NCBI RefSeq assembly: GCF_007559025.1
Contig: NZ_CP041765.1
Span: forward strand, 212,679 to 244,678
From: Tomitella fengzijianii
GTDB lineage: Bacteria; Actinomycetota; Actinomycetes; Mycobacteriales; Mycobacteriaceae
Direction: 5' to 3'
DNA: 32,000 bases
Shown: positions 5,664 to 23,296 of the stretch, piece after piece
Layout: every line of letters starts with the position of its first letter
How positions within the stretch are numbered: position 1 is the first letter of the stretch
Made by a program: the position numbers and the translations under genes
The notes under the pieces: model-generated
Databases searched by the model: none
What the model was told of the DNA's origin: nothing
Seen by the model: only the letters and a program-made list of their open reading frames with translations

Positions 5664-5866
5664 GAGATTACCTCCGAGCGGACGGTGCGGCGGCGTGCGC
5701 GGTGCCGACCGCCGTCGTGCCGTGTCCGGCCGAGCCCGCCGGCCGCCGTCTCATGTCCGTGCGCACGTGTCCGAAGTGTCCAGCAGTCCGGTACGAGATC
5801 TCCGGTTTGTACATGTCGCGTGGATCACGTCCGTCCTTACGCTCGGGGCATTCGACGAGGAGGTTG

Positions 5867-7234: not shown

Positions 7235-7275
7235 ACCCGCCTTCCCGAACCCTGCGACAGCCCGAGGAGACCCGA

Positions 7276-8757: not shown

Positions 8758-8799
8758 TCGTGCGCGTGCCAGACCTCTGATCCATCCGGCCGCGCACGC

Positions 8800-10356: not shown

Positions 10357-10474
10357 GGCGCGGCCCCGCCTTCGCCGCCGCGTACAGCGCCGGCCGGGAA
10401 ATTGTCCAGAACGGACATGGGGTGCATCACAGTATGATCGTAACGTCGCCTCAGTCACCGATCGAGGAGGCGAA

Positions 10475-11965
10475 ATGCCTGGAGAACACGACCAGTTGCA
10501 GGCCGGCCTGAAAAAGCGGCACCTGACGATGCTCTCGTTGGGCGGGGTGATCGGCGCCGGCTTCTTCGTCGGGATCAGTGCCATCATCAATCAGGCGGGC
10601 CCGGCCGCTGCGCTCACCTGCGCGATCACCGGCGTCATCGTGTTCGTCGTCATGCGGATGCTCGGGGAGATGGCGGTGGCCAAGCCGTGCACCGGCTCGT
10701 TCACCGAATACGCACGCATGGCCTTCGGCCCGTGGGCGGGCTTCGCCACCGGGTGGCTGTACTGGTACTTCTGGGTGATGGTCGTCGGGATCGAGGCGGT
10801 CATCGGCGGCTCGCTCCTGGCCCGCTGGTTCCCCGACGTGCCGATGTGGATCATGTCCGCGGGGCTCCTGCTGATCATGACCCTGGTCAACCTGGCCTCG
10901 GTCGGCAACTTCGGCGAGGCGGAGTACTGGTTCGCCGGCATCAAGGTGACGGTGATCCTCGCGTTCATCGTCGTCGCCTCGCTGTTCGTGTTCGGCCTGT
11001 GGCCGGGGACGCACGCCGACTTCTCCAACCTCATCGACCACGGCGGCTTCATGCCCAACGGTTTCGGGCCGGTGCTCGTCGGCGTCGTCGCCGTGATCTT
11101 CTCCATGACCGGCGCCGAGCTCGTGACGATCGCGGCCGCCGAGTCGCCGGAGCCCGGCGAGTCGATCCGGCGCGCGACGAACACCGTGGTGTTCCGGGTC
11201 CTCGCGTTCTTCGTCATCTCCACCCTGCTGCTGGTGACGATGGTGCCGTGGGACGCGTTCACGGTGGGGGAGTCGCCGTTCATCGATGCGCTGTCGCGTC
11301 TGGGCGTGGGCGCCGGCGCCGACATCCTCAACCTCGTCGTGCTGGTGGCGGTGCTGTCGTGCCTCAACTCGGGTCTCTACACCGCCTCACGCATGCTCTT
11401 CACGCTGTCGCGCCACCAGAACGCGCCCGGCTGGATGGTGCGCACCAACAGCCGCGGCGTGCCGGTCAAGGGCGTCCTCGCGTGCACTGTCATCGGCTAC
11501 GGCTGCATCGCCGCCGGTTACATCTGGCCGGACACGATCTTCATGTTCCTGGTGAACTCGTCGGGTGCCGTGTGTCTGTTCGTGTACGTGTTCATCTGCG
11601 CCTCCGAGATCCGGCTGCGCCGGCGGTGGGAGCGGACCTCGCCGGAGATCCTCGAGTTCCGGGTCTGGCTGTTCCCTGTGGTGCCGATCCTGGTGACGCT
11701 GGTGATCCTGTCGGTGCTGGTCGGCATGGCGTTCGTGTCCGACATGCGCGCGCAATTGATGCAGAGCCTCATCGCGTTCGCCGTGATCCTCGGCGCGTAC
11801 CTGGTCAAGCGGACGCTGGGGCGCAGGCGGGGCAGGACCGCCGAGGCGGGCGACGCGTCGCCGGTCGAGCAATCGAGGCCGGTGGAACCCGGCTCGGTCG
11901 CCGAGGCGGATTCGGCTGAACAGCCGGAGTCTTCCGGCACGGCGGCGGTGACCGCCGCGCGGTAG
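10475..11965 (+). CDS. APC-superfamily amino-acid permease (GabP-like by context)
   Basis: About 12 hydrophobic segments; N-terminal LKKRHLTMLSLGGVIGAGFFVG is the signature of AAT-family permeases. ATG 10475 is preceded by RBS GAGGAGG (10464-10470). It is divergent from the PucR gene. Confidence 0.9.
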   Translation: MPGEHDQLQAGLKKRHLTMLSLGGVIGAGFFVGISAIINQAGPAAALTCAITGVIVFVVMRMLGEMAVAKPCTGSFTEYARMAFGPWAGFATGWLYWYFWVMVVGIEAVIGGSLLARWFPDVPMWIMSAGLLLIMTLVNLASVGNFGEAEYWFAGIKVTVILAFIVVASLFVFGLWPGTHADFSNLIDHGGFMPNGFGPVLVGVVAVIFSMTGAELVTIAAAESPEPGESIRRATNTVVFRVLAFFVISTLLLVTMVPWDAFTVGESPFIDALSRLGVGAGADILNLVVLVAVLSCLNSGLYTASRMLFTLSRHQNAPGWMVRTNSRGVPVKGVLACTVIGYGCIAAGYIWPDTIFMFLVNSSGAVCLFVYVFICASEIRLRRRWERTSPEILEFRVWLFPVVPILVTLVILSVLVGMAFVSDMRAQLMQSLIAFAVILGAYLVKRTLGRRRGRTAEAGDASPVEQSRPVEPGSVAEADSAEQPESSGTAAVTAAR

Positions 11966-11992
11966 CGCGTGCCGCCGTGCCGTCTTGGCGGT

Positions 11993-12853
11993 TCATTGCC
12001 GGGCCCGCGCGAGGATTTCCGTCGCCAGCCGCGCCGGCGCCTCCTCGGGAATCCAGTGGCCGATGCCCTCCAGCGGCACGAACAGGTAGTCGGCGGTCAC
12101 GTACTCGCCGCACGCCTCCGCGCCCGTGCGCCCCAGCGCCACATCGTCGGTGCCCCACACGTACGTGGTGGGCACGTCGACCGGCGGCAGCTGCGACATC
12201 TCCGGGGTCATGGCGCGGTACCAGTTCAGGGCGGCGACGATGCCCTCGGGCGTGCCGAGCCGGCGCAGGTGCGCGTCGATCAGGTCGCGGGGTACCGCGT
12301 CGCCGAACACGTCGCGGAAGCGCCGGGCGTCGTCGGCCAGCAGCGCCTCCTCCGCCCGGCCTTCTTCCCGGAACACCTGCATGTATTGCGACTTGCGGCG
12401 CTGGTCCGGGTCGTTCTTCAGCGCGCTGCGGAACGCCGCAAGGTGCGGGACCGAGACGGCGATGAGCGTGGCGACCCGCCCGGGGTGCCGCGCAGCGAGG
12501 GTCCACGCCACCGAGGCGCCCCAGTCGTGCCCGACGACGTGCGCGCGGCCGGCCCCGAGGCGGTCGAGGATCCCCAGCGCGTCGGCGACGAGGCGGTCGA
12601 TGCGGTAGTCCTCCACCGAAGAGGGGCGCGCGCCGGGGGAGTACCCGCGCTGGTCCGGTGCGATGACGCGCAGTCCCGCGGCGGTGAGAAGGGGTGCGAC
12701 CGCCCGCCACTCGTCGTACGACTCCGGGAACCCGTGCAGCAGCAGCACCGGCTCGCCGTCCTCGGGCCCGGCCACGGCGACGTCGAAGGTGTGCTCGCCG
12801 ACGGGGATCCGCCGGATGTCGGTGAACGGGGCGGGGGTGTGCGTGTCAGTCAT
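11993..12853 (-). CDS. alpha/beta hydrolase (epoxide-hydrolase/dehalogenase-like, Asp nucleophile)
   Basis: Motifs HGFPES and the nucleophile elbow GHDWG, plus a C-terminal GIGHW His motif. The start was trimmed to ATG 12853 (MTDTHTPAPF). This is the intact copy of the gene whose 5' part is duplicated at 15015-15386. Confidence 0.85.
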   Translation of the reverse strand: MTDTHTPAPFTDIRRIPVGEHTFDVAVAGPEDGEPVLLLHGFPESYDEWRAVAPLLTAAGLRVIAPDQRGYSPGARPSSVEDYRIDRLVADALGILDRLGAGRAHVVGHDWGASVAWTLAARHPGRVATLIAVSVPHLAAFRSALKNDPDQRRKSQYMQVFREEGRAEEALLADDARRFRDVFGDAVPRDLIDAHLRRLGTPEGIVAALNWYRAMTPEMSQLPPVDVPTTYVWGTDDVALGRTGAEACGEYVTADYLFVPLEGIGHWIPEEAPARLATEILARARQ

Positions 12854-12871
12854 GCCCGGGATTGTGCCTGC
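12482..12871. repeat. direct repeat R1a (hydrolase 5' coding region plus 18 bp upstream)
   Basis: Ungapped hand alignment with 15015-15404 at constant offset 2533. I counted about 31 mismatches in 390 positions. Confidence 0.9.
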
Positions 12872-12902
12872 AGCCCGGCGGCCCCGCCCCATGTTTCGTG
12901 CG

Positions 12903-13244
12903 TCAGCCGATCCACGCGTCGTCGAAGAGCATGATCTCGTCGAAGGTGACCTTGACGCCGTGGACGTCGCTGCGCCACACGTCGAGGTTCGGGGACGCCC
13001 CCCAAGGCTGCCACGGCAGTGTCTCGTTCATCCGCTGCTGGATCCGGGTGAGCACGTCTTTCTTGGCGGCGTCGTCGGCGGCGGCGCCGTCCGCCCGGAT
13101 GCCTGCCCGTGGTGTCTCCCGGCCGGAGAACGCATGCTTGAGGCGGCGCCACAGGTAGACGACTCGCCTGCCTCTGCCGAGAGCGGCACGTACGGTCGAA
13201 CGGGTACGGGCGGGTGCCGGTCGTGCCGGCGCAAGATATGCCAT
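12903..13244 (-). CDS. small chimeric ORF: 54-aa Arg-rich N-terminal module shared with the vanY-like gene, fused to an unrelated 59-aa C-terminus
   Basis: 113 codons, MAYLAPARPAPARTRS...ADGA then AADDAAKKDVLTRIQQRMNETLPWQPWGASPNLDVWRSDVHGVKVTFDEIMLFDDAWIG. The C-terminal part has host-like high GC3. The N-terminal 185 bp is 183/185 identical to 15902-16086. No recognised family; expression is uncertain. Confidence 0.4.
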   Translation of the reverse strand: MAYLAPARPAPARTRSTVRAALGRGRRVVYLWRRLKHAFSGRETPRAGIRADGAAADDAAKKDVLTRIQQRMNETLPWQPWGASPNLDVWRSDVHGVKVTFDEIMLFDDAWIG

Positions 13245-13266
13245 GCCGCCACTCAAGGCGAAGTGG
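13082..13266. repeat. direct repeat R2a (185-bp 5' module)
   Basis: Line-by-line comparison with 15902-16086 at offset 2820 shows only two differences (13137 c/t, 13164 t/g). Both fall on third codon positions and are synonymous in the MAYLAP frame. Confidence 0.95.
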
Positions 13267-13287
13267 TTCCAGAGCCACTGCCACGCG

Positions 13288-13306
13288 CTGTAGTAATCCG
13301 CTACAG
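13288..13306. promoter_or_regulatory. inverted repeat CTGTAG-n7-CTACAG, candidate antitoxin operator overlapping a TANNNT -10 (TACAGT, 13302-13307)
   Basis: Perfect 6-bp arms seen directly. It ends 7 nt before the antitoxin ATG, so the -10 position would give a leaderless or near-leaderless transcript. Any function is inferred. Confidence 0.4.
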
Positions 13307-13313
13307 TAGGGGT

Positions 13314-13670
13314 ATGAAGACGATGCCGACTCGCATTGACGATGCGCTGTTCACTGCGGCGAAACAGGCCGGCCAGCTGCACAGCCGCAGCGCCGCCCAG
13401 CAGATCACCCACTGGGCGTACCTCGGCCGCGCGCTGGAAGTAGAGGGATCGACGAGTACCCGCACGATCGAGCAAGTCCTCACTGGCGAGAAGTCCTACG
13501 ACGACCTCGACCCCCCGAGCCAGGCGGCGGTGCGCGCCGTGTGGGATGAGCGGATCACCGATCGCATCGCTCGCCTCAACCTGGCGGACGAGTTCACCGC
13601 ACACGGCGAAACCTGGTCCGAGGCCGACGCTGACGGCACTGTCGTCGAGCGCACCACCAGCAGCACGTGA
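13314..13670 (+). CDS. ParD-like type II antitoxin
   Basis: 118 aa, MKTMPTRIDDALFTAAKQAGQLHSRSAAQQITHWAYLGRALE...SYDDL...VRAVWDE. This matches the ParD-like antitoxin family pattern I recall (RHH-like N-terminus). Its stop overlaps the next gene's start (GTGA). Confidence 0.7.
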   Translation: MKTMPTRIDDALFTAAKQAGQLHSRSAAQQITHWAYLGRALEVEGSTSTRTIEQVLTGEKSYDDLDPPSQAAVRAVWDERITDRIARLNLADEFTAHGETWSEADADGTVVERTTSST

Positions 13671-14236
13671 GCACCCCCGTCCTGCATCTGCTGGCAGGAC
13701 CGAACGGGGCGGGAAAGTCGACGTTCGTCGAGCGTGTGCTGCAGCTTGCGACGCACCTGCCGTTCATCAACGCCGATCACATTGCTGCAGCCCGCTGGCC
13801 CGGCGACGAGGAAGCGCACGCATACGACGCATCGCAGGCGGCTGCCACAGAACGCGCCGCACTGCTCGCCGCACGGCAGTCGTTCATCAGCGAGACGGTG
13901 TTCAGCCACGACAGCAAGGTTGCCCTCGTCGAGAACGCCACGGCCCACGGCTATGTGGTGGACCTGCACGTGATCGTCGTCCCCGTCGAGCTCACGGTTG
14001 CGCGTGTCGCCGAGCGGGTTCGCCGCGGCGGGCATTCCGTGCCCGACCGGAAGATTCGGGAACGCTACCAGCGGTTGTGGCCGTTGGTCGCTGCCGCCCG
14101 GACGACGGCTGAGCGCACCACGCTGTACGACAACAGCACGGCGCACGACCCGTTTCGCGTGTTCGCCACCTACCGCTGCGGCGAGCTTGATGGGAGCGGG
14201 GTGTGGCCGGCGTGGGCGCCCCCCGAGCTGCGGTGA
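13667..14236 (+). CDS. zeta-toxin-family P-loop kinase (COG4185-like), putative toxin
   Basis: 189 aa with Walker A GPNGAGKST, the INADHIA Asp segment, SETVFSH, and the highly typical RVRRGGHSVPDRKIRERYQRLW block. It shares a 4-nt overlap with the antitoxin gene. Confidence 0.75.
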   Translation: MSTPVLHLLAGPNGAGKSTFVERVLQLATHLPFINADHIAAARWPGDEEAHAYDASQAAATERAALLAARQSFISETVFSHDSKVALVENATAHGYVVDLHVIVVPVELTVARVAERVRRGGHSVPDRKIRERYQRLWPLVAAARTTAERTTLYDNSTAHDPFRVFATYRCGELDGSGVWPAWAPPELR

Positions 14237-14344
14237 GTACCACTGTGCCAGGCGCGGGACACACTGCCCGGGGTGATGGCGCTCGTTGATTCTCCCCAGT
14301 AACGCTCACTGAAATTCCCCACCGGTGTGGCTCCGCCAACGAGG

Positions 14345-14405
14345 GCGGGTCTCCCCGGATGCTGGTGGTCTCTGACCACGCACCAGTACTCCGAAGGAGA
14401 CCCGC
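14345..14405. other. nested hairpin (10-bp outer stem GCGGGTCTCC/GGAGACCCGC enclosing GTGGTC-tct-GACCAC)
   Basis: Outer arms lie at 14345-14354 and 14396-14405; the inner hairpin is 14365-14370/14374-14379. It is about 110 nt downstream of the toxin stop. It could be an intrinsic terminator or a structured RNA or site; there is no U-tract. Confidence 0.3.
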
Positions 14406-14710
14406 TTTCTCATGCTGGAATGGGAGGAAGACGGGGATGCACACGCACTACGCAATCGTGGCTGGACGATCTCCGCGATCGCCCCCGGTGGCGGCGGCGG
14501 TTCGTCGCTCGTGCCCTCCGGCGGCACCGGCCCCACCGTGAGCGATGCGGCCCCGTCGGTGACGATCGCCTATTCCACTGCACCCGAGCCCGGGTGCACG
14601 GGTTCGCTGTGCAGCCTCTTCGGCAGCCTCACCAGATCCCGCTCTGGTGCCGGAAGCTGATCAGCCGCAGGTGAGTCCGGCGGGCGCGACCGGCGTGTGC
14701 GCCCGCCCCA

Positions 14711-15015
14711 GCCTCACTCCTCGACCAGCGCGAACACCCGCGCCGGGCTGCCGGTGCCGCCGACGATGGGCAGGGGCGCCACCACGAGCACCGCGCCGGA
14801 GGCGGGCAGCTGCGCCAGGTTCTGCAGCGAGGTGACCCCGTACTTGTCGTGCCCCAGCAGGTGGTGGTGGGCGGGGAACGGCGGCTGGAATTCGGCCGCT
14901 CCGTCGCCAGCCACTCGGCCGCTTCGGCGGTGAGTCCGGGTGTGTGCGAGCCGTTCTCGTCGGCGTTGAGGAACGCCTCCTGATCGTCCGAGTACTTCCC
15001 CCACCCGGTGCGGAG
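14711..15015. repeat. direct repeat R3a (cyclase 3' fragment)
   Basis: Aligns with 20820-21176 at offset 6109, then 6161 after a 52-bp deletion at 14894/14895. About 8 substitutions by hand count. Confidence 0.9.
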
Positions 15016-15386
15016 GGGTGTCGCGCGGCGAGGGTCCAGGCCACGGACGCGCCCCAGTCGTGCCCGACAACGTGCGCGCGCCCGGCCCCGAAGTGGTCGA
15101 GGATCCCCGCGGCGTCGGCCACGAGTCGGTCGATGCGGTAGTCCTCCACCGCTGGAGGGCGCGCGCCGGGGGAGTACCCGCGCTGGTCGGGCGCGATGAC
15201 GCGCAGCCCCGCGGCCGCGAGCAGAGGTGCCACCGCCCGCCACTCGTCGTACGACTCCGGGAACCCGTGCAGCAGCAGCACCGTCTCGCCGTCCTCGGGG
15301 CCGGCCACGGCGACGTCGAAGGCGTGCTCGCCGACGGGGATCCGGCGGATGTCGGTGAACGGGGCGGGGGTGTGCGTGTAACTTAT
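14714..15386 (-). pseudogene. chimeric pseudogene: alpha/beta-hydrolase N-terminal 124 codons fused out of frame to the cyclase C-terminal fragment
   Basis: The hydrolase-derived part (15015-15386) has its start codon changed from ATG to ATA (plus-strand tat at 15384-15386 versus cat at 12851-12853). The junction falls after the ...AARHP codons at 15015. The cyclase-derived part (14714-15014) is out of frame and carries a 52-bp deletion. Confidence 0.9.
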
Positions 15387-15404
15387 GCCCGGGATTGTGC
15401 CTGC
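15015..15404. repeat. direct repeat R1b (hydrolase 5' fragment)
   Basis: Partner of 12482-12871; see R1a. Confidence 0.9.
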
Positions 15405-15467
15405 GCTGGTCCGGCGGCGCGTGTGATCCGGGCGGATCCTCGGCCGGGCGCGTGCCGTGAGCGCCGG

Positions 15468-16064
15468 TCAATGCTGCATTCTCGGGTCGTGCGTGGGGTC
15501 GGCGTACATCGGAGGACGACCGTGGACGATGGCCTCCGGGCGCAGTTCGTAGTGCCAGGGCTCATTGGCGTAGACCTGGCACAGCCCGTACCTGGCGCCG
15601 TGTTCGGACAACCACGCCGTGGCTTCGGCGGGCCCGAGGTCGACGGCGTCCCCCGATACGTGTGCAGACGTTCCGGGGGTGGCCACCAGCCGGGCGGCCT
15701 TCCGTTCCGAGCCGTGCGTCCAGACCGCCTCGAGAAGCAGCCGCTCCTGGTATTGCGGGGAACGCCAGCCGCTGTTGACGACGAACCCGACCCCATCGAC
15801 CGCGGCATCGGAGGCGGCATCGCGGAGGGCGCCGAGAAGAGCAGCATCCAGGTTGGTCACGGCCGGAAACCCGTCGTCGAAGACCGTCACGTTCGCGGGG
15901 ACGGCGCCGTCCGCCCGGATGCCTGCCCGTGGTGTCTCCCGGCCGGAGAACGCATGTTTGAGGCGGCGCCACAGGTAGACGACGCGCCTGCCTCTGCCGA
16001 GAGCGGCACGTACGGTCGAACGGGTACGGGCGGGTGCCGGTCGTGCCGGCGCAAGATATGCCAT
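15468..16064 (-). CDS. vanY: VanY-like M15B D-Ala-D-Ala carboxypeptidase (no hydrophobic anchor)
   Basis: 198 aa. The catalytic domain carries VNSGWRSPQYQ, the zinc-site motif TSAHVSGDAVD, and NEPWHYE. The start is ATG 16064; the rest of the track ORF (to 16514) is antisense to vanR. The N-terminal 54 aa is the shared R2 module. Confidence 0.8.
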   Translation of the reverse strand: MAYLAPARPAPARTRSTVRAALGRGRRVVYLWRRLKHAFSGRETPRAGIRADGAVPANVTVFDDGFPAVTNLDAALLGALRDAASDAAVDGVGFVVNSGWRSPQYQERLLLEAVWTHGSERKAARLVATPGTSAHVSGDAVDLGPAEATAWLSEHGARYGLCQVYANEPWHYELRPEAIVHGRPPMYADPTHDPRMQH

Positions 16065-16086
16065 GCCGCCACTCAAGGCGAAGTGG
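15902..16086. repeat. direct repeat R2b (185-bp 5' module)
   Basis: Partner of 13082-13266 (183/185 identical). Confidence 0.95.
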
Positions 16087-16087
16087 C

Positions 16088-16130
16088 GTTGCCAGCCCGT
16101 ATTCGCTTTTCGATATGTCGGCGATATCCA
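16088..16130. promoter_or_regulatory. conserved van promoter element, copy B (vanY/vanR divergent region), with direct repeat CGATAT-n5-CGATAT
   Basis: GTTGCCAGCCCGTATTCGCTTTTCGATATGTCGGCGATATCCA aligns ungapped with 20710-20752. The hexamers at 16111-16116 and 16122-16127 are 11 bp apart. A TANNNT motif (TACCCT, 16139-16144) sits 7 nt before the vanR ATG. Confidence 0.5.
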
Positions 16131-16151
16131 CGGTTCCGTACCCTGGGGGCC

Positions 16152-16829
16152 ATGCGCGTTCTGCTCGTCGAGGATGAGCCCTTCATGGCGGAGGCCGTCC
16201 GTGATGGGCTGCGACTGGAAGCGATCGCCGCAGACATCGCCGGTGACGGCGACACTGCCCTGGAGTTGCTGGGCGTCAACGACTACGACATCGCCGTGCT
16301 CGACCGGGACATCCCGGGTCCATCCGGTGACGCGATCGCCCAGCACATCGTGGCCTCCGGCAGCAGTATGCCGATCATCATGCTCACCGCCGCCGACCGG
16401 CTGGACGACAAGGCTTCGGGGTTCGAGCTCGGCGCCGACGACTACCTGACGAAACCCTTCGAACTCAGAGAGCTCGTGCTCAGGCTCAGGGCGCTCGACC
16501 GCAGACGTGCCCACAACAGGCCGCCCGTGCGTGAGATCGCGGGCCTGCGCCTGGATCCGTTCCGCCGCGAGGTCTACCGTGACGGCCGGTACGTCGCGCT
16601 CACCCGCAAACAGTTCGCCGTGCTCGAAGTCCTCGTCGCCGCCGAAGGCGGGGTGATCAGCGCCGAAGAGCTACTCGAGAAGGGATGGGATGAGAACGCC
16701 GACCCCTTCACGAACGCGGTGCGAATCACAGTCTCAGCGCTCCGTAAACGGCTTGGCGAGCCCTGGCTGATCGCCACCGTCGCCGGCGTGGGGTATCGCA
16801 TCGACACGGCCACCACCAGCGATCGGTAG
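16152..16829 (+). CDS. vanR: OmpR-family response regulator VanR
   Basis: 225 aa beginning MRVLLVEDEP, with receiver Asp in AVLDRDIPG and a winged-helix C-terminus (LTRKQFAVLEVL...VGYRI). It lies next to VanS and the vanHAX genes. Only the last 225 codons of track ORF 15018-16829 are used. Confidence 0.9.
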   Translation: MRVLLVEDEPFMAEAVRDGLRLEAIAADIAGDGDTALELLGVNDYDIAVLDRDIPGPSGDAIAQHIVASGSSMPIIMLTAADRLDDKASGFELGADDYLTKPFELRELVLRLRALDRRRAHNRPPVREIAGLRLDPFRREVYRDGRYVALTRKQFAVLEVLVAAEGGVISAEELLEKGWDENADPFTNAVRITVSALRKRLGEPWLIATVAGVGYRIDTATTSDR

Positions 16830-16838
16830 GGCGCGGCG

Positions 16839-17930
16839 GTGGTCAGAGCACGCGGTTTGAGTGTGCGCCTCAAACTCACCCTCAGCTACGCCGGGTTCCT
16901 CATGCTCGCCGGCGTCCTGCTGCTCGGAGCGGTGTTCGTGTTCCTCCTGAAGTACCAGGAGATCGGCATTTCGAGATCCGGCGTGGTGATTTCACCGCCT
17001 GGCACCGTCCTGATCCGCGCCTTCGCGCCGACCGCGGGAATCGTGCTGGCGTGTTTGCTGGTGTTCGGCCTGGTGGGAGGCTGGCTGCTGGCCGGACGGA
17101 TGCTCTCGCCGCTGAACCGCATCACCGCCGCCACACGTACGGCCGCGACCGGGTCGCTCGCCCACCGGATCCGGCTCCCGGGGCGCCGTGATGAGTTCCG
17201 TGAACTCGCCGACGCCTTCGACGCCATGCTTGCCCGGCTCGAAGCGCAGGTGGCCGAGCAGCAGCGCTTCGCGGCCAATGCCTCGCATGAATTGCGCACC
17301 CCGCTCGCGGTCACGCAGACGCTTCTCGATGTGGCGCGCAACGATCCGGATCGCGACAGCGGCCGGCTGATCGAGCGCCTCCGCGCCGTCAATGCCAGGG
17401 CGATCGACCTCACCGAGGCATTGCTGCTCCTGAGCCGCACGGACCAGCGGTCCTTCGTCCGGGAAACCGTCGATCTGTCCCTTGTCGCGGAGGAAGCCGC
17501 CGAGACGCTTCTCCCGCTCGCAGAGAAGCGTGACGTCACCGTCGAAACCTCCGGCGACGTGGCTCTCGCGTCCGGCTCGCCGGCGCTCTTGCTGCAGATG
17601 GTCACCAACCTGGTGCACAACGCGATCGTCCACAATCTCCCTCAGAGTGGAACTGTCCGCGTCACAACCAGCGTTCACCCCGGCAGCGTCGTGCTTGCCG
17701 TCGAGAACACCGGCGACAAACTCACCCCGCAGATCGTGGCCACGCTCGCCGAGCCGTTCCAGCGCGGCAGCAGCCGCATCCGCGACGACCACGCAGGTAT
17801 CGGCCTTGGCCTGGCCATCGTGAAGAGCATCGTGCAAGCGCACGACGGAACTCTCACCCTGGCGCCTCGAACCGCGGGCGGGCTCTGCGCCACAGTGCGA
17901 CTACCCGACCCGCGATACACCGGAAGCTGA
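16839..17930 (+). CDS. vanS: sensor histidine kinase VanS
   Basis: Two N-terminal TM helices flank a ~27-aa loop, followed by a HAMP-like linker, H-box ASHELRTPL, N-box LVHNAIVHN, and G-boxes ENTG and GIGLGLAIV. The GTG start is 10 nt after the vanR stop. Confidence 0.9.
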   Translation: MVRARGLSVRLKLTLSYAGFLMLAGVLLLGAVFVFLLKYQEIGISRSGVVISPPGTVLIRAFAPTAGIVLACLLVFGLVGGWLLAGRMLSPLNRITAATRTAATGSLAHRIRLPGRRDEFRELADAFDAMLARLEAQVAEQQRFAANASHELRTPLAVTQTLLDVARNDPDRDSGRLIERLRAVNARAIDLTEALLLLSRTDQRSFVRETVDLSLVAEEAAETLLPLAEKRDVTVETSGDVALASGSPALLLQMVTNLVHNAIVHNLPQSGTVRVTTSVHPGSVVLAVENTGDKLTPQIVATLAEPFQRGSSRIRDDHAGIGLGLAIVKSIVQAHDGTLTLAPRTAGGLCATVRLPDPRYTGS

Positions 17931-17991
17931 CGATCCGAGGAGCCTCCGGCTCGGCCCGCGTCGACCACCGCCGAGGTCCAGGAGACTCCGG

Positions 17992-18600
17992 TCATGTGAT
18001 GGGGAAGTCGAAGTAGGCATCCGGATGCGGCTCGTTTCTCAGGGTGTAGTGCCACCATTCGCAGTCGTAGCGGTCGAATCCGCAGCCTTCCATGATGGAA
18101 CGGAGATGCTCGCGATGAGCGGTCTCGGCTCGCGTGATCTCCCGGGCTCGATGCCGTGAAATCGGGTCCATGAGGTCGTGGCCGCCGCCCATGGAAACCA
18201 GCTCGCCGGTGTCGAGGTGATAGAGCGTCAGGTCCACGGTGCTGCCCCTGCTGTGGCCCGACCTGGTGGCCACATATCCGTGCTCGATCATCTCCGCCCG
18301 GTCGATGTGCGGGTAGTGGCGCAGTTTGGTCCGGCCGTCTTCCGGCTGCTCGGACCAGCGGATGAAGCAGTCGACCGCGCGCTGGGGGCGATATCCGTCC
18401 CACAGAAGCAGCCCGAAGCCACGCGCGGCCGCGTTCTCGTTTGCCTGCTCCAGAGCCGTGCACAGGGCCCGGGTGCCGACAATGCGATTCGCAAGATAAC
18501 CGTCTACTGGCTTGCCGGTGAAGTTGTCCCACGTCGCGTACTTGGCATCCCAGCGTATTCCGGGCACCAGCGCGTCGATGTAGAGGAAGTCGTCGTTCAT
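17992..18600 (-). CDS. vanX: D-Ala-D-Ala dipeptidase VanX (M15D)
   Basis: 202 aa with motifs YATWDNFTG, LLWDGYRP, SGHSRGSTVDLTL and CEWWHYT. Its ATG overlaps the ligase stop (ATGA). Confidence 0.95.
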   Translation of the reverse strand: MNDDFLYIDALVPGIRWDAKYATWDNFTGKPVDGYLANRIVGTRALCTALEQANENAAARGFGLLLWDGYRPQRAVDCFIRWSEQPEDGRTKLRHYPHIDRAEMIEHGYVATRSGHSRGSTVDLTLYHLDTGELVSMGGGHDLMDPISRHRAREITRAETAHREHLRSIMEGCGFDRYDCEWWHYTLRNEPHPDAYFDFPIT

Positions 18601-19637
18601 CGTCGACCGCCGTCCAAAGCCGCGGAGATGAGACTGTCTATGAGAGCGGACGGCGGGACTCCTGCGGCGGCCATCATCCGCGGGTACCGGCTGTAAGAAG
18701 TCATGCCGGGCATCGTGTTGACCTCGTTGAGCACCACTTGCCCGTCATCGGTGAGGAACATGTCGACACGGGCGAGCCCCCGGCAACCGAGAGCCCGATA
18801 GATGGCCTTGGCGGCATCTTGCACGCGTTGGCGCGACTCGTCGGAGATGTCGGCGGGAACGATGAAGGTCGAGTTCTCCGATCCCGTCTCCGGGGAGCTC
18901 TCTTGGTGGATTCTGAAGAATCCGTGCGTGAGGTCGACGCGGTCCACCTCGCCCGTGATCACGCTGAACCGGTCTCCGAGGACTGCGCAGCCGATCTCGT
19001 CGCCGGCCACGGCCTCCTCGACCAGGACTCTCGAGTCATACTGGCGCGCTGCGCGCAGCGCGATCGGAAGGTCTTCCGCCCGAGTGACTTTGCTGACCCC
19101 GAAAGAGGAACCGGAGCGGGCGGGCTTCACGAAGACGGGATAGCGGATACAGCCGGATTCGACCTTGTCGTCCGCCGTGACGACCCGGAAGCGAGGGGTG
19201 GCGATCCCCGCGCTTGTGGCGACGGTGTAGGCCAGCGACTTGTCCATGCACACGGCCGAGCTCTGGATGTCGCAGCCGACATAGGGGATGCCGGAGAGTT
19301 CCAACAGGCCTTGGATCGCGCCGTCCTCACCGAGTTTGCCGTGGAGCAGAGGGAAGACGAGGTCGAGATGCAGCGCCTCGTAGCCGTTCCGCCCCATCAC
19401 GAGCAGGCCGTGCACGCTTCGGTCGGGCGACAACATCGCGCGGCGGGTGCTGCCCTCCTCCCAGCCCGCCACAGGGCCGTCGCAAAGTCTCCACTCGCCG
19501 CCTGTCGTGATGCCGATCCAGAACGGTTCATAGCGTGCAAGGTCGAGGTTGCGGGCGATCTCGCGCGCTGACTTGACGGAGACCGCATGCTCTTCGGATA
19601 CGCCGCCGAAGAGAATTCCTACCCTCAGTCTCCTCAT
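18597..19637 (-). CDS. vanA: D-alanine--D-lactate ligase (VanA-type; allele type not determinable here)
   Basis: 346 aa, collinear with enterococcal VanA as I recall it: ILFGGVSEEHAVSVKSA, LHGKLGEDGAIQGLLELSGIPYVGCDIQSSAVCMDKSL, YPVFVKPARSGSSFGV, FFRIHQE..PE.GSEN, LGCRGLARVDMFL, NEVNTMPGMTSYSRYPRMMAAAG. The start was trimmed to ATG 19637, which overlaps the vanH stop (ATGA). Confidence 0.95.
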   Translation of the reverse strand: MRRLRVGILFGGVSEEHAVSVKSAREIARNLDLARYEPFWIGITTGGEWRLCDGPVAGWEEGSTRRAMLSPDRSVHGLLVMGRNGYEALHLDLVFPLLHGKLGEDGAIQGLLELSGIPYVGCDIQSSAVCMDKSLAYTVATSAGIATPRFRVVTADDKVESGCIRYPVFVKPARSGSSFGVSKVTRAEDLPIALRAARQYDSRVLVEEAVAGDEIGCAVLGDRFSVITGEVDRVDLTHGFFRIHQESSPETGSENSTFIVPADISDESRQRVQDAAKAIYRALGCRGLARVDMFLTDDGQVVLNEVNTMPGMTSYSRYPRMMAAAGVPPSALIDSLISAALDGGRR

Positions 19638-20686
19638 GGTGTCTTCTCGCTTTCGAATTCCACGCAGTTGGTGAGGCTGTTCTCGATCGTGTCTTTCAGC
19701 GCGTGATCGGTGTAATAGGCGCAGTGCGGGCTGATCAGCACATTCGGCAGAAGTTGAAGCCGCAGCAACGCGTCGTTCTCGATCGGCTTGTTTCGGCGAT
19801 CGGCGTAGAAGATCCCTTCTTCGCCTTCGAGGACGTCCAGAGCTGCGCCGCCCAACTTGCCGCTCTCCAGCGCGTGGAGGAGGGCTTCGGTGTCGAGCAG
19901 GCACCCGCGGCCGGTGTTGATGATGTATGCGCCGGGCTTCATCAGCTCGATGCGTCGACGATCGAGTAGATGGTGTGTTTCCGCGGTGAGCGGGGTGTGG
20001 AGGGTGACGATGTCGCTTTGCGCGATCAACTCGTCCAGTGGTACGTAGTCGACGTCGGGGTGACGCTGGCAGTCGTGGGCCAGTAGGCTGCTGCCGAAGC
20101 CTTGCAGTCGGTCGATGACCGCTGTGCCGATACGGCCTGTTCCGATCACCCCGACGGTCAGATCGCGTAGCTCCTTACCGCGGGTCGCGCCCAGCCGGTA
20201 GTCATGAACATCCGCGCGACGGATGCTGGATTTCGCGTGGCGCACGGTCATCAGCGTCACCATCAACGTGAAGTCGGCCACGCTGTCCGGCGAGTAGGCG
20301 ACGTTGCCGACCGAGATGCCGAGGCGCCGGGCGTGTGCCACGTCGAGGTGGTTGTAGCCGATGCTCCTGGTGGATATGTATTCCACACCGGCTCCGCTCA
20401 GCGCCAGGAGCGTGGCATCGGTGATCCGGTTCTTGTGGTTCACGCTGATGCATCGGCTGCCACGCGCCAGCGCAGCGTTGGCCTCACAGGCTGGTGCCTC
20501 GGTCACGGTCAGCGACACTCCGAGACGGTCCCCCGCGTCTCGGAACAAGACGGCTTCCTCGTCGCCGCACCCGAAGACTGTGACCTCGGTCGTCGCAAAT
20601 GCCGACGGGCGTCGCTCGGCCATGCCTCGGACTCGACGGCCCGTCATCGCGCTGCTGTGGACCAGATCCGGTTCGGTATTGGGCAT
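19634..20686 (-). CDS. vanH: D-lactate dehydrogenase VanH (D-isomer 2-hydroxyacid dehydrogenase)
   Basis: Collinear with VanH: ITVFGCG, YISTRSIGYNH, VAYSPDSVADFT, GVIGTGRIG, DIVTLHTPL, INTGRG, GKLGGAALDVLEGEE, SPHCAYYT. The start is uncertain. ATG 20686 was chosen because it aligns with the vanY-like ATG in the conserved upstream element. Alternatives are 20698 (TTG), 20647 and 20623. Confidence 0.9.
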   Translation of the reverse strand: MPNTEPDLVHSSAMTGRRVRGMAERRPSAFATTEVTVFGCGDEEAVLFRDAGDRLGVSLTVTEAPACEANAALARGSRCISVNHKNRITDATLLALSGAGVEYISTRSIGYNHLDVAHARRLGISVGNVAYSPDSVADFTLMVTLMTVRHAKSSIRRADVHDYRLGATRGKELRDLTVGVIGTGRIGTAVIDRLQGFGSSLLAHDCQRHPDVDYVPLDELIAQSDIVTLHTPLTAETHHLLDRRRIELMKPGAYIINTGRGCLLDTEALLHALESGKLGGAALDVLEGEEGIFYADRRNKPIENDALLRLQLLPNVLISPHCAYYTDHALKDTIENSLTNCVEFESEKTP

Positions 20687-20709
20687 GGCCCAAGTCAAGG
20701 CGACGATGT

Positions 20710-20752
20710 GTTGCCAGACCGTATGCGATTTTCAATACACGGACGATATGCC
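20710..20752. promoter_or_regulatory. conserved van promoter element, copy A (upstream of vanH)
   Basis: GTTGCCAGACCGTATGCGATTTTCAATACACGGACGATATGCC. The core 27 nt differs from copy B at 4 positions. On the vanH strand it contains TACGGT (TANNNT; plus-strand coordinates 20718-20723) and hexamers CAATAC/CGATAT spaced 11 bp apart. Confidence 0.5.
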
Positions 20753-20819
20753 GCTGAGTCGTGTCAACGCGGCGGCCTCGTCGAGGCTTGCCGTGCAGGG
20801 CATCCGATCTGCGTCGGCC

Positions 20820-21176
20820 GCCTCACTCCTCGACCAGCGCGAACACCCGCGCCGGGCTGCCGGTGCCGCCGACGATGGGCAGGGGCGCCACCACGAGCAC
20901 CGCGCCGGTGGCGGGCAGCTGCGCCAGGTTCTGCAGCGAGGTGACCCCGTACTTGTCGTGCCCCAGCAGGTGGTGGTGGGCGGGGAACGGCGGCTGGAAC
21001 TCGGCGGCCTTGCCCGCGTCGATGCCCACGGTGTCCACGCCGATGCCGGAGATCGGCCGCTCGGTAGCCAGCCACTCGGCCGCCTCGGCGGTGAGTCCGG
21101 GTGTGTGCGAGCCGTTCTCGTCGGCGTTGAGGAACGCCTCCTGATCATCCGAGTACTTCTCCCAGCCGGTGCGGAG
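20820..21176. repeat. direct repeat R3b (3' end of the intact cyclase gene)
   Basis: Partner of 14711-15015. Homology starts only 3 bp beyond the cyclase stop codon. Confidence 0.9.
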
Positions 21177-21590
21177 CAGCAGCCACCCGTTCTCCGGCAG
21201 CCGCCCGTGCTCGGCCTCCCAGGCTTCGATGCGCGGCACGTCGATGAGGAAGTCCGGGTCGTTCTCCACCTCCGCGCGCACGTCGAGCACCACCGCCGGG
21301 CCGACGAGCCTGGGCAGTCCGATGCCGGCGACGTCCTTGCCCTCGCGCCCGGTGATCCAGTGCACGGGTGCGTCGATATGCGTGCCGATGTGCTCGCCGG
21401 TGCGGATGTTGTGGTGCTTCCAGAAGGGGCCGGGCTCGTTGTAGGCGCTGACCTCTTCGAGGCTGAAGTCGATGAGGTTGGAGAACGGCTCGGGCAGCCG
21501 CAGCGTCGGCGTGCCGGCCGACAGCGTGTTGGTCAGGTCGATCATCCTGATCGCCCCGCGGTCGAGGGCGGAAAGCAGTTCGGTGAGCAT
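20823..21590 (-). CDS. cyclase-family hydrolase (kynurenine formamidase / isatin hydrolase family)
   Basis: 255 aa with the metal-binding motif HIGTHIDAPVHW (HxGTHxDxPxH). ATG 21590 is preceded by GAAGGGA. The track ORF extending to 22484 overlaps the ThDP gene in another frame and was trimmed. Confidence 0.85.
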   Translation of the reverse strand: MLTELLSALDRGAIRMIDLTNTLSAGTPTLRLPEPFSNLIDFSLEEVSAYNEPGPFWKHHNIRTGEHIGTHIDAPVHWITGREGKDVAGIGLPRLVGPAVVLDVRAEVENDPDFLIDVPRIEAWEAEHGRLPENGWLLLRTGWEKYSDDQEAFLNADENGSHTPGLTAEAAEWLATERPISGIGVDTVGIDAGKAAEFQPPFPAHHHLLGHDKYGVTSLQNLAQLPATGAVLVVAPLPIVGGTGSPARVFALVEE

Positions 21591-21649: not shown

Positions 21650-23296
21650 CTACCCCTCGGCCTTGAACGCGTCGGCGAGCCACCAGGACGGCGCCGAGTC
21701 CGCCACTTTGATGTCCACCAGCAGCGGCGTGTCCCGCGGGCCGGACAGCCATGCGGCGACCGCGTCCAGGTCGCCTTCCTCGCGCACGGTGGCACCGGTG
21801 AACCCGTACCCGCGCCCGACCGCCGCGAAGTCGACGTCGGGGAAGGTGACGAAGCCGTCGTCGCCGTCGGTGCGGCCGAAGTGGTGCACCTCCGCGCCGT
21901 AGGCGGAGTCGTTGTAGACGAGCACCACCATGGGCAGGCCCAGCCGCACCACGGTCTCCAGCTCGGTGGCGCCCATCAGCAGGCCGCCGTCGCCGCAGGC
22001 GGCCACCGTCAGCCTGTCGGGGCGGGCGACGGCATGCCCGATCGCGGAGGCCAGGCCGAGGCCGACGCATTGGAAGGCCTGGCTGAAGCACAGCGAGCGG
22101 GCGTCGGAGATGGTGAGGAACATGCTCGGGTAGCCGAGGAAGTTGCCCGAGTCGACGGCGACGTTCTTGTCGTCGCCGAGCATCCCGTCGAGGGCGATGG
22201 TCGCCGTGCGCGGGTCGATGCGTCCGGGGTTCGCCGACGGCCGGAACGGGACGTCCGGCCACCGGGCGCCGTCGGCGATGCGCTTGCGGTTGGTGCCGGT
22301 GCGCCGCTTGCCGGAGAGCTCCTCCATCTCCGGGATGTGCGCGGCGATGGCGTCGGCGGTGGCGGCCGCGTCGCCGGCGATCTCCAGCTGCACGGGGCGC
22401 TGCAGGCCGAGCCGCGCGGGGGCGTCGTCCACCTGGACCAGCGTGGCCTTCTGCGGCAGCAGGTCGCCGTTGCTGGTGGTCCACCGGCCCAGGCCGCAGC
22501 CGAATGCGACGATCACATCGGAATCGAGGACCAGCTCGGCGGTGAGCGGGCTGGCCAGGTCGCCCATCACGTCCAGGTTGTACGGGTCGCCGTGGAAAAG
22601 GCCCCGGGCGACGGCCGAGGTCGCCGTCAGCCCGCCGGCGAGCCGGGCCAGGTTCAGCAGCTCGTCGCGTGCGTGCCGCGCCCCGCGCCCGCCGATGATC
22701 AGGGGCGCCCGGGCATCCAGCAGCAGCTGTGCGGCGGCCTCGACGTCCGCCGGATCCGGGAGCAGCGGGCGTGCGGCCTGCAGCGGCGGCACCGGGCCGT
22801 CCTCGGGGGACTCCATCGTCTGCACGTCCACCGGGAAGTTGAGCACCACCGGTGTGCGGTCGGCGAGGGCGGTGCGCACCGCCATCCGGACGTCCGCGGT
22901 GGCGGTGTCGCGGGCCACGCGCACCGAGGCGGCACCGACGGCGCGGGCGAGTCCCTCCTGGTCCACGCGGAAGTTGGACAGCCGGTCGCCCGTCGGCGCC
23001 TCCCCGGCGAGCACGATCAGGGGCGTGCCGCTCTTGGCCGCCTCCGTCAGGCCGGTGATCAGGTTGGTCAGCCCGCCGCCCTGGTGCACGGACACCACGG
23101 GCAGCGTGTCGGCCATGCGCGAGTACGCGTCGGCCATCGACACGGCGCCGCCCTCGTGGCGGGCGGAGACGTACGCGGCGCCGCGGTCGATGAGCGCGCG
23201 CGTCACGTGGTAGTTGCCGCTGCCGGCGACGCCGAACACCTGGGTGACCCCGAGGGCGTGGAGCGTCTCGGCGACCCGTTCGTAAACCTTCATCAC
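21650..23296 (-). CDS. thiamine-diphosphate-dependent enzyme (acetolactate synthase / benzoylformate decarboxylase family)
   Basis: 548 aa. The N-terminal Pyr domain reads VFGVAGSGNY...ARHEGGA. The ThDP-binding motif is GDGGLLMGATELETVVRLGLPMVVLVYNDSAYG. Substrate unknown. Confidence 0.85.
   Translation of the reverse strand: MMKVYERVAETLHALGVTQVFGVAGSGNYHVTRALIDRGAAYVSARHEGGAVSMADAYSRMADTLPVVSVHQGGGLTNLITGLTEAAKSGTPLIVLAGEAPTGDRLSNFRVDQEGLARAVGAASVRVARDTATADVRMAVRTALADRTPVVLNFPVDVQTMESPEDGPVPPLQAARPLLPDPADVEAAAQLLLDARAPLIIGGRGARHARDELLNLARLAGGLTATSAVARGLFHGDPYNLDVMGDLASPLTAELVLDSDVIVAFGCGLGRWTTSNGDLLPQKATLVQVDDAPARLGLQRPVQLEIAGDAAATADAIAAHIPEMEELSGKRRTGTNRKRIADGARWPDVPFRPSANPGRIDPRTATIALDGMLGDDKNVAVDSGNFLGYPSMFLTISDARSLCFSQAFQCVGLGLASAIGHAVARPDRLTVAACGDGGLLMGATELETVVRLGLPMVVLVYNDSAYGAEVHHFGRTDGDDGFVTFPDVDFAAVGRGYGFTGATVREEGDLDAVAAWLSGPRDTPLLVDIKVADSAPSWWLADAFKAEG

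Follow-up and report, generated by a model that had tools for sequence, protein, structure and literature searches.

A VanO-related cluster in the cyclase-hydrolase spacer of Tomitella fengzijianii, probably acquired by duplicative integration from a related chromosome

A predicted glycopeptide resistance (van) cluster of Tomitella fengzijianii, a bat-gut actinomycete, lies at a locus with the topology of a tandem duplication, within the 32-kb stretch of chromosome analyzed here (the window). The arrangement is probably best explained by duplicative integration: a related Tomitella would have donated a segment in which a VanO-type cluster already occupied the same slot, the short spacer between a cyclase-family gene and an alpha/beta-hydrolase gene. 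The pieces in the repeat pairs seem to have come in from a related lineage and not to have been copied in place, and the locus would be a clear, if unexceptional, record of gene import at a recombination hotspot between two housekeeping genes. Features are listed in Table 1.

Table 1. Features of the cyclase-hydrolase locus (window positions)
Feature	Position	Strand	Basis or remark
alpha/beta-hydrolase, full length, 286 aa	11993..12853	-	Pfam Abhydrolase_1 6e-31
ABC-transporter substrate-binding protein (SBP) 3' remnant, last 59 codons	12903..13075	-	tblastn
R2, copy of vanY 5' end (22 nt upstream + first 54 codons)	13076..13266	-	4 mismatches to 15896-16086
Type II toxin-antitoxin (TA) pair, intact (predicted)	13314..14236	+	Pfam
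ParD-like antitoxin	13314-13670	+	Pfam ParD_like 48 bits (cut-off 23)
Zeta-toxin/AAA_33 kinase	13667-14236	+	Zeta_toxin 45.5 bits (cut-off 22.3), AAA_33 49.7 (cut-off 27)
IS21-family left-end remnant (terminal repeats + first 24 istA codons)	14272..14484	+	truncated at 14484
Cyclase-hydrolase intergenic hairpin, ancestral, terminator-like	14670..14713	-	homology to DNA past T. gaofuii cyclase stop
Cyclase 3' fragment, pseudogene (last 117 codons minus 52-bp deletion)	14711..15015	-	alignment
Hydrolase 5' fragment, pseudogene (18 nt upstream + 124 codons)	15015..15404	-	alignment
van genes vanY, vanR, vanS, vanX, vanA (O-type), vanH	15468-20623		
vanY-like M15 D,D-carboxypeptidase, 198 aa	15468..16064	-	Pfam VanY 6e-12
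vanR	16152-16829	+	best NCBIfam match VanR-O 455 bits (cut-off 505)
vanS	16839-17930	+	best NCBIfam match VanS-O 498 bits (cut-off 720)
vanX	17992-18600	-	NCBIfam VanX equivalog 389 bits (cut-off 320)
vanA/O-type D-Ala-D-Lac ligase	18597-19637	-	NCBIfam D_ala_D_lac equivalog 584 bits (cut-off 550)
vanH	19634-20623 or -20686	-	NCBIfam VanH_gen 496 bits (cut-off 540)
Cyclase-family gene, full length, 255 aa	20823..21590	-	Pfam Cyclase 1.4e-41

Self-BLAST of the whole window returned exactly three non-trivial self-matches, and a separate repeat search was concordant. The hydrolase-5' repeat (12482-12882 versus 15015-15418; 90.6% identity, 35 mismatches and one 3-bp gap, E 3e-159) comprises in its first copy the 5' 372 nt of the hydrolase and 18-29 nt upstream. 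The cyclase-3' repeat (14711-15015 versus 20820-21176; 8 mismatches and one 52-bp gap, E 6e-117) comprises in its second copy the 3' 357 nt of the full cyclase. The R2 repeat spans 191 bp (13076-13266 versus 15896-16086; 4 mismatches, E 2e-90), its second copy, R2', being carried by vanY. The longest perfect runs were 90, 89, and 62 nt for the cyclase, 102 nt for R2, and 52 nt for the hydrolase, and divergence among repeat pairs was spread widely (8.6%, 5.6%, 0.6%, and 2%). In base-level alignments the cyclase and hydrolase fragments meet at 15015, joined through 1 nt of microhomology (a G common to both).

All three repeats had been reported in a first-pass annotation of this DNA, which proposed a dot-plot where self-BLAST was used here. 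Its ungapped 390-bp hydrolase match with about 31 mismatches proved real (33 were counted over those 390 bp), its cyclase match with about 8 substitutions and one 52-bp deletion was exact, and its R2 block, given as 185 bp, was found at 191 bp. The abutment of the two partial copies at 15015, the bracketing of the TA and van modules by direct repeats, and the gene identities (by Pfam and NCBIfam) were likewise borne out. The order it described also held: full hydrolase, X (the TA module), cyclase-3' fragment, hydrolase-5' fragment, X' (the van module), full cyclase. This is a head-to-tail topology with one breakpoint per gene and a single novel junction, at 15015, joining unit end to unit start.

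The two hydrolase copies are not each other's closest relatives. The resident protein is identical to T. fengzijianii QDQ96182.1, and its orthologs adjoin DHDPS in T. gaofuii, T. cavernea, and L082. The fragment has lost its start (ATG>ATA) and retains an intact 124-codon frame with zero internal stops or indels; the cyclase-hydrolase fusion is a pseudogene, given this lost start, an out-of-frame fusion, and the frameshift that the 52-bp deletion causes in the cyclase part. Fragment and resident differ with dS 0.244 and dN/dS 0.19 (0.14 without the first three codons), as compared with dS 0.27-0.33 and dN/dS 0.19-0.27 among true orthologs. Under neutral drift of one copy, the probability of ≤ 12 nonsynonymous changes among the 33 would be 0.003 at omega 0.6 and 1e-5 at omega 1, and neutral decay of one copy is rejected on these codon comparisons. 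At 23 of the 33 differing sites the fragment's state is found in orthologs of other species. Quartet sites were divided 8 (resident with T. gaofuii, fragment with T. cavernea) to 4 (resident with fragment) to 0 (third split), and the outgroup L082 agrees with the fragment at six of the eight. The fragment appears to have diverged from the resident as an ortholog would, with a synonymous distance close to that between species and with purifying selection acting. The samples behind these repeat-pair statistics are small (33 hydrolase differences and 8 cyclase differences).

The full cyclase is 97.6% identical (amino acids) to its T. gaofuii ortholog. The 8 sites at which the cyclase fragment differs from 20820-21176 comprise 6 synonymous and 2 nonsynonymous changes (dN/dS 0.11), only one of them in the stop-proximal 180 bp, and its 52-bp deletion is bordered by two GCCGA repeats. 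The lower dS of the cyclase pair (0.08, versus 0.24 for the hydrolase pair; Fisher P = 0.02) weighs against a single integration, and needs unequal conservation of the two genes, a crossover located there, or later gene conversion. From the first base past TGAGG onward, the DNA that follows one cyclase copy differs from that which follows the other. The fragment retains the ancestral hairpin (predicted dG -26.5 kcal/mol), a region that has the 15-mer CGGGCGCACACGCCG in common with DNA after the T. gaofuii cyclase stop; in the full cyclase vanH DNA stands there instead, the vanH upstream DNA beginning 2-5 nt past the stop. The two cyclase copies therefore never had one downstream context in common.

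The ancestral adjacency of hydrolase and cyclase predicted by the first-pass annotation is present in the sister species T. gaofuii, where the slot of JACHUW01 is empty (cyclase TGA, 23 nt, hydrolase ATG). In T. gaofuii CP059900 the slot is occupied by unrelated cargo of 1,536 bp with a direct repeat of 14-15 nt on either side, and the left neighbor differs in T. cavernea and L082. Judged by these genomes, the short spacer is a recombination hotspot in Tomitella with different accessory DNA per genome. A 6.3-kb permease-cassette insertion directly 3' of the full hydrolase (window 5680-11998) is specific to this lineage and absent from three relatives. The flanking genes carry mosaic phylogenetic signals among T. 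fengzijianii, T. gaofuii, and T. cavernea; they do not settle the order of these species, so either copy of each pair may be native. A donor arrangement of cyclase, van genes, and hydrolase was not found in another genome among 185,579 species representatives (cyclase query), among 5.8 billion proteins, or in JGI metagenomes. This counts against duplicative integration; absence from databases does not disprove a donor.

In the van module, vanH, vanA, and vanX form one operon (17992..20686, minus strand) accompanied by vanR and vanS, with complete Pfam domains, which is the composition of a D-Ala-D-Lac cluster. The vanRS genes are predicted to be a two-component regulator pair of VanO type. The ligase matched VanO best (643 bits) and fell under the cut-off of 750, as VanR-O and VanS-O fell below theirs; by these profile scores the cluster is a relative of VanO and not VanO itself, and its glycopeptide resistance is predicted. 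The vanY protein scored 71.7 bits against NCBIfam VanY-N, under the cut-off of 250. Its start was placed at the ATG at 16064, where the promoter block ends, giving 198 aa versus 140 aa in RefSeq; the motif ADGAVP, upstream of the 140-aa start, is conserved in metagenome homologs. The closest vanHAX elsewhere is 86% identical in nucleotides and 80% in amino acids. The cluster has been listed previously for Tomitella sp. HY188 (PMC8698665).

Module X consists of patched-together gene remnants and is no replaced copy of X'. The SBP remnant matches the C-terminal ends of annotated SBP genes carried by Rhodococcus plasmids (tblastn, 40-46% amino acid identity, E down to 4e-10) and is fused in frame with R2 into a 113-aa chimeric ORF. 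The IS21 remnant matches the element end and istA start of IS21-family elements on 35 Rhodococcus plasmids at about 85% nucleotide identity, and the open reading frame at 14412-14660 ('orf82') consists of istA codons continuing into other DNA. Between these remnants lies the predicted toxin and antitoxin pair, two small adjacent genes overlapping at 13667-13670 and both above family thresholds, with a putative palindromic operator at about 13291-13309. The GC content is 0.68 in X and 0.66 in the van module, with flanks of 0.72-0.74; by this and the distance of the nearest vanHAX elsewhere, both cargo modules look foreign.

The proposed integration would have proceeded as follows. A related Tomitella chromosome would have carried vanHAX, vanRS, and vanY between its own cyclase and hydrolase, and the recipient slot would have held other cargo, namely the ABC-transporter remnant, the ParD/zeta TA pair, and the IS21 remnant. 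Integration would have required two joins. One would be a homologous crossover within the cyclase 3' region or upstream of it; the other, illegitimate, would connect the donor hydrolase at codon 124, through 1 nt of microhomology, with the cyclase at a point 357 nt short of its stop. This could have occurred by homology-facilitated illegitimate recombination (HFIR) of linear DNA or by Campbell-type single-crossover insertion of a circularized fragment, with the same product. Either route would duplicate part of the anchor gene and leave a stub of the donor's far-side gene, mimicking a tandem duplication; slight decay (the ATG>ATA change and the 52-bp slippage deletion) would have followed. The illegitimate joint with its 1-nt overlap beside 305 bp of cyclase homology, and the ortholog-like allele differences in the inserted block, are as expected of such an event. 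The sequence comparisons show the layout, the empty T. gaofuii site, a heterologous origin for the repeat pairs, and the composite makeup of X; which module came second and how the DNA entered are inferred. A single integration leaves R2 unexplained. The most natural reading would be that R2 is left over from an earlier van copy that stood in this slot, its near identity to vanY reflecting a spread of the van cluster among Tomitella lineages long after those lineages had diverged.

The first-pass annotation had instead proposed that a tandem duplication, breaking within the hydrolase and within the cyclase, took place in this lineage and was followed by divergence and later replacement of the cargo in each copy. 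Its topology and ancestral adjacency stood: a duplication predicts exactly the head-to-tail order and the single novel joint at 15015, the required adjacency exists, and R2 supplies at least one internal piece common to both halves. A single in-situ duplication diverging in place did not stand. A truncated gene cannot remain under purifying selection, yet dN/dS is 0.19 for the hydrolase pair (dS 0.244, P = 0.003) and 0.11 for the cyclase pair; 124 hydrolase codons lack any frame-breaking change; and the fragment shares other-species states at 23/33 sites and groups with T. cavernea by 8 quartet sites to 4. Halves of the same age with colinear content would be expected, yet divergence is uneven among the repeat pairs and X and X' have only R2 in common. 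Replacement of their contents after duplication is likewise not supported, given the patchwork in X and the cyclase ends that differ downstream from the first base after TGAGG. A duplication of this kind is judged quite improbable.

Less easily set aside, though still doubtful, is an in-situ duplication whose full-length flanking genes were later overwritten by homologous recombination with relatives' DNA, so that the fragments would be the old native alleles. The same topology would result, the mosaic signals in the flanking genes are compatible with overwriting, and the 6.3-kb permease insertion, whose arrival beside the hydrolase could itself have been one overwriting event, shows that this flank has recombined. 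Separate allelic replacements would, however, be required on both sides, each ending within a repeat, together with cargo and hairpin replacement in one copy and the gain of R2, many more events than a single integration, and the hairpin beside the cyclase fragment with vanH beside the full cyclase would be left unexplained. An assembly artefact, either a faulty join or a chimeric assembly of two strains grown together that have different cargo in the slot, is extremely improbable. Short-read assembly is known to be at risk from repeats of 190-400 bp at 91-99% identity, but these are different enough to resolve, and the joint at 15015 has no homology able to mislead an assembler and itself shows decay (ATG>ATA and the 52-bp deletion). 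Moreover, draft contig VMEF01000006.1 matches the window without a difference over 20,861 nt, and the hydrolase, VanY, cyclase, and VanA proteins also occur on a 3,948,637-bp T. fengzijianii record.

The van and TA modules are bracketed by direct repeats whose length and similarity would suffice for RecA recombination, and deletion and amplification products are therefore predicted, a prediction from the repeats that is sound. Recombination between the 305-bp cyclase repeats would excise a 6.1-kb van circle and restore an intact cyclase beside the original hairpin, and unequal exchange would amplify the van unit. It is further conceivable, if unlikely, that the spacer and its G+C-rich hairpin serve as a recombinase-independent docking site that stacks cargo, with the van unit cycling between integrated and excised states and re-inserting by homology in any Tomitella that has the cyclase gene in common; were this true, a resistance cassette would be mobilized only by host recombination and borrowed flanks. 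Under duplicative integration, an environmental actinomycete can gain a complete glycopeptide resistance operon without a dedicated mobile element, as part of a chromosomal piece that comes from a relative and enters at a common hotspot, and the integration itself makes the direct repeats that render the operon excisable or amplifiable. This bears on the real mobility of "chromosomal" van clusters in Mycobacteriales. It also calls for caution in annotation: import, not duplication, can yield a tandem-duplication topology, and the two can be told apart by fragment dN/dS, states common to orthologs, and empty-site comparison.

The van genes resemble the VanO cluster of Rhodococcus equi and other Mycobacteriales in their best matches (VanO, VanR-O, and VanS-O), in vanHAX being convergent with vanRS, and in a ligase 79% identical (amino acids) to that of Rhodococcus VanO. 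They differ in the extra divergent vanY, in their place in a Tomitella chromosomal slot, and in VanO-specific scores below cut-offs. HFIR, which combines one homologous and one illegitimate end with microhomology of typically 3-10 nt, and single-crossover integration have been described in S. pneumoniae, Acinetobacter, P. stutzeri, and E. coli conjugation, and in E. coli a single crossover with a circular molecule leaves 109-950 bp of the anchor locus in two copies (PMC3240628). Common to these systems and the Tomitella locus are a homologous anchor with an illegitimate joint, partial duplication of the anchor (305-357 bp here), and foreign DNA between the repeats. The Tomitella event differs in being deduced from a natural genome, in an insert of 6 kb versus about 1 kb, and in a donor that would be a related chromosome, hence the stub of the far-side gene carried along. 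The 1 nt of microhomology at its joint, less than is typical of HFIR, weighs against the integration model. Sequential displacement that leaves 3' stubs, attributed to HFIR, is known from orphan T6SS immunity genes of Vibrio cholerae and orphan 3' ends of Rhs/CDI genes (PMC5361080). As in those arrays, modules would have entered at a conserved flank and pushed older cargo downstream, with 3' stubs of the displaced gene left between modules; here, by contrast, the cargo is a resistance operon and a TA pair rather than toxin/immunity genes, there are two modules only, and stubs of both flanking genes are present. Streptomyces amplifiable units of DNA (type II AUDs) are units between direct repeats of a few hundred bp that undergo RecA-dependent deletion or tandem amplification. 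The Tomitella locus is likewise a direct-repeat-bracketed unit in an actinomycete chromosome for which such deletion and amplification are predicted; it differs in being known from sequence alone and in its repeats, which are imperfect (91-99%) and consist of gene fragments that integration would have made.

Self-BLAST returned three significant internal matches in the 32-kb window, and a repeat search was concordant. The hydrolase-5' repeat was 90.6% identical (35 mismatches and one 3-bp gap), the cyclase-3' repeat differed by 8 mismatches and one 52-bp gap, and the R2 repeat carried 4 mismatches in 191 bp. The longest perfect runs were 90, 89 and 62 nt in the cyclase repeats and 52 nt in the hydrolase repeats. 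Base-level alignments placed the joint between the two fragments at 15015, where one G is common to both, and the 52-bp deletion of the cyclase fragment between two GCCGA repeats; the coordinates and counts of the first-pass annotation were therefore correct. The repeat positions and the joint also bear out the order that it had described, with an intact hydrolase and an intact cyclase on either side of abutting partial copies. In the resulting pseudogene, ATA stands at the hydrolase start, the two parts are fused out of frame, and the cyclase part is frameshifted by the deletion; the hydrolase fragment holds no stops or indels over 124 codons. The draft contig VMEF01000006.1 matched the window at 100% over 20,861 nt, and the hydrolase, VanY, cyclase and ligase proteins were identical to T. 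fengzijianii entries, which come from this contig and from a 3.95-Mb record. No tRNA genes were present in the 32-kb window, and a tRNA-linked island was rejected on that basis.

Genes, repeats and pieces of X, the toxin-antitoxin (TA) side of the locus (window coordinates)
Feature	Position	Strand
Amino-acid permease	ends 11965	+
Alpha/beta hydrolase	11993-12853	-
113-aa chimeric ORF	12903-13244	-
ParD-like antitoxin	13314-13670	+
Zeta/AAA_33 toxin	13667-14236	+
Cyclase-3'/hydrolase-5' pseudogene	14711-15404	-
vanY	15468-16064	-
vanR	16152-16829	+
vanS	16839-17930	+
vanX	17992-18600	-
Ligase	18597-19637	-
vanH	19634-20623	-
Cyclase	20823-21590	-
TPP enzyme	21650-23296	-
Hydrolase-5' repeat	12482-12882 / 15015-15418	
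Cyclase-3' repeat	14711-15015 / 20820-21176	
R2 repeat	13076-13266 / 15896-16086	
X: last 59 codons of ABC-transporter substrate-binding (SBP) gene		
X: R2 (vanY 5' end)	13076-13266	
X: TA pair, intact		
X: IS21-family left end and first 24 istA codons	14272-14484	
X: DNA without assignment (~200 bp)		
X: ancestral hairpin		

The same annotation had explained this order by a tandem duplication in place, with later divergence and replacement of the contents of X and of X', the van side. Hydrolase sequences were compared over 385 aligned nt among the resident (intact) gene, the fragment, T. cavernea and T. gaofuii. The fragment and the resident gene differed at 33 sites. T. cavernea showed 36 differences from the fragment and 44 from the resident gene, and T. 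gaofuii showed 51 and 43, respectively. Of the 33 sites that separate the fragment from the resident gene, 23 had a fragment state that was present in another species. Eight quartet-informative sites grouped the resident gene with T. gaofuii and the fragment with T. cavernea (an outgroup agreed with the fragment at six of these), four grouped the resident gene with the fragment, and none gave the third split. By the Nei-Gojobori method the resident gene and fragment were separated by a dS of 0.244 and a dN of 0.046 (omega 0.19), and true orthologs by an omega of 0.19-0.27 and a dS of 0.27-0.33; under neutral drift of one copy (overall omega ~0.6), the probability of 12 or fewer nonsynonymous changes among 33 was 0.003. 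The cyclase pair showed 6 synonymous and 2 nonsynonymous differences (omega 0.11). Purifying selection is impossible on truncated genes, and each repeat pair therefore represents alleles of two lineages. The cyclase copies also differ in their 3' contexts: the stop of the fragment is followed by a hairpin (predicted dG -26.5) homologous to T. gaofuii sequence and sharing with it the 15-mer CGGGCGCACACGCCG, and in the full cyclase the DNA upstream of vanH begins after TGAGG. The ortholog-like omega, the shared states, the eight against four quartet sites and these contexts argue against a diverged duplication with replaced contents, which should, we think probably, give way to a duplicative import at a hotspot. 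The cyclase pair has diverged less than the hydrolase pair (P = 0.02); the phylogeny of the flanking genes was unresolved or mosaic and did not single out the native copy of either pair.

Comparison of related genomes recovered the hydrolase-cyclase neighbourhood that had been postulated. T. gaofuii JACHUW01 has an empty site with the two genes adjacent (cyclase TGA-GGGGGGCGGGCACAATCCCGGGC-ATG hydrolase), T. gaofuii CP059900 has the order TPP, cyclase, 1,536 bp of unrelated ORFs, hydrolase and DHDPS, and T. cavernea and contig L082 carry a CoA-transferase where the cyclase would be. Given these contents, empty or other cargo, the neighbourhood is real and the spacer is a slot whose cargo varies. 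These T. gaofuii and T. cavernea genomes were reached solely via protein-cluster members and not by the cyclase genome scan, in which none of the 80 relatives retrieved had the hydrolase within 10 kb.

Further features of the slot were observed in these comparisons. Two T. gaofuii strains with 97% identical flanks, L086 (CP059900; 8447-9982) and L093 (6768-6792), differ by the 1,536-bp cargo, on either side of which lies a 14-15-nt direct repeat, GGGCGC[C/A]CACGCCG. The 15-mer of this repeat also lies 3' of the cyclase fragment (~14690-14704); either an att-like core or a hairpin-targeted break site could explain the repeat. A MAG contig (CAZDSL010000359.1) from a relative 90% identical in nucleotides across the TPP-cyclase region stops 185 bp past the cyclase stop, with 3' sequence resembling neither window copy, which fits a variable slot and an assembly break-point in that genome as well. 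A 6.3-kb block (5680-11998) exactly fills the interval from the hydrolase stop to DHDPS, encodes the amino-acid permease, a PucR-family regulator, an aldehyde dehydrogenase and a class-III aminotransferase, and is absent from both T. gaofuii strains, T. cavernea and contig L082, where the hydrolase-DHDPS gap is ~10 bp; it is a second lineage-specific insertion beside the same hydrolase. Conservation upstream of the hydrolase in all species is limited to the ~16-18 nt that directly precede the ATG (GGCACAATCCCGGGC) (window 12854-12871 and 15387-15404; L086, L087 and L082). No Shine-Dalgarno sequence precedes this ATG across the compared species, and CACAAT, 7 nt upstream of it, looks like the -10 box of a leaderless transcript.

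X' comprises a VanO-like cluster. The ligase scored 584 bits, above the generic D-Ala-D-Lac equivalog cut-off of 550, and its best match was VanO (643 bits, under that model's cut-off of 750); VanX was above its equivalog cut-off, and the regulators best matched VanR-O and VanS-O, both under the model cut-offs. The GC content of X' was 0.66 versus 0.72 in the flanks, and the closest vanHAX elsewhere was 86% identical in nucleotides and 80% in amino acids. A published survey of van genes in actinobacteria has already listed the Tomitella sp. HY188 cluster (PMC8698665).

The vanY product is annotated as 198 aa in GenBank versus 140 aa in RefSeq. Soil-metagenome VanY homologs keep ADGAVP ahead of the 140-aa start, where they often lack a start codon, and this favours the longer form; the N-terminus of the 198-aa form shows no obvious membrane helix, in contrast to some homologs. 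An ungapped 66-nt block (ATATCG..ATACGGnCTGGCAAC..TCGCCTTGA..CATG; alignment score 64 versus a shuffle maximum of 34) lies upstream of both vanH (20684-20749) and vanY (16062-16127), is a candidate VanR-dependent promoter, and contains the start of R2. It ends at ATG in both places, which suggests that vanH may start 21 codons before its annotated position, at 20686. R2 as a non-coding vanY leader, implied by the 140-aa call, was rejected on the ADGAVP conservation and on the end of this shared block at the ATG.

X is a patchwork of pieces, and at least four illegitimate junctions therefore lie within it. The IS21-family remnant shares ~85% identity with elements of 35 Rhodococcus plasmids, a sign of past exchange with mobile DNA of the Rhodococcus type; a plasmid search surfaced the IS21 and SBP remnants and no counterpart of X or X' as a whole module. 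'orf82' and the 113-aa ORF were rejected as real genes, both being fusions of remnants. R2 and vanY have diverged by ~1-2% versus 8.6% for the hydrolase pair, and a single event does not account for R2; it fits a relic of an earlier van-cluster copy, the cluster having presumably spread among Tomitella recently.

The deletions foreseen in the first-pass annotation hold as predicted geometry. Exchange between the cyclase repeats would drop 6.1 kb including the van cluster, and a crossover in the stop-proximal block would restore an intact cyclase beside its hairpin. Recombination of the hydrolase repeats would drop 2,533 bp including X, and the hydrolase left behind would begin with the defective ATA; exchange between the R2 copies would drop 2,820 bp, in which the TA pair and the greater part of vanY lie.

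In the simplest account, a chromosomal segment from a Tomitella relative would have entered the T. fengzijianii genome; in that relative, the cyclase stop and the hydrolase leader would already have flanked the van cluster. The segment would have integrated by one homologous exchange in the cyclase, the second end being an illegitimate joint of donor hydrolase codon 124 to the cyclase; linear-DNA homology-facilitated illegitimate recombination or single-crossover insertion of a circularised fragment would give the same product. No donor genome was found by the cyclase genome scan, VanA protein search or VanY metagenome scan: the nearest VanA homologs were at most 80% identical in amino acids (the two best on short contigs without Tomitella flanks), the best VanY identity was at most 79%, and contigs with an 80%-identical hydrolase spanned 1.8-2.8 kb and had no annotated van gene. 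Single-crossover insertion has been documented to leave 109-950 bp of the anchor locus in duplicate (PMC3240628). The T. fengzijianii structure is a well-documented case of an already known kind of event. For T6SS arrays, in which modules are stacked with 3' stubs, the same explanation has been given (PMC5361080).
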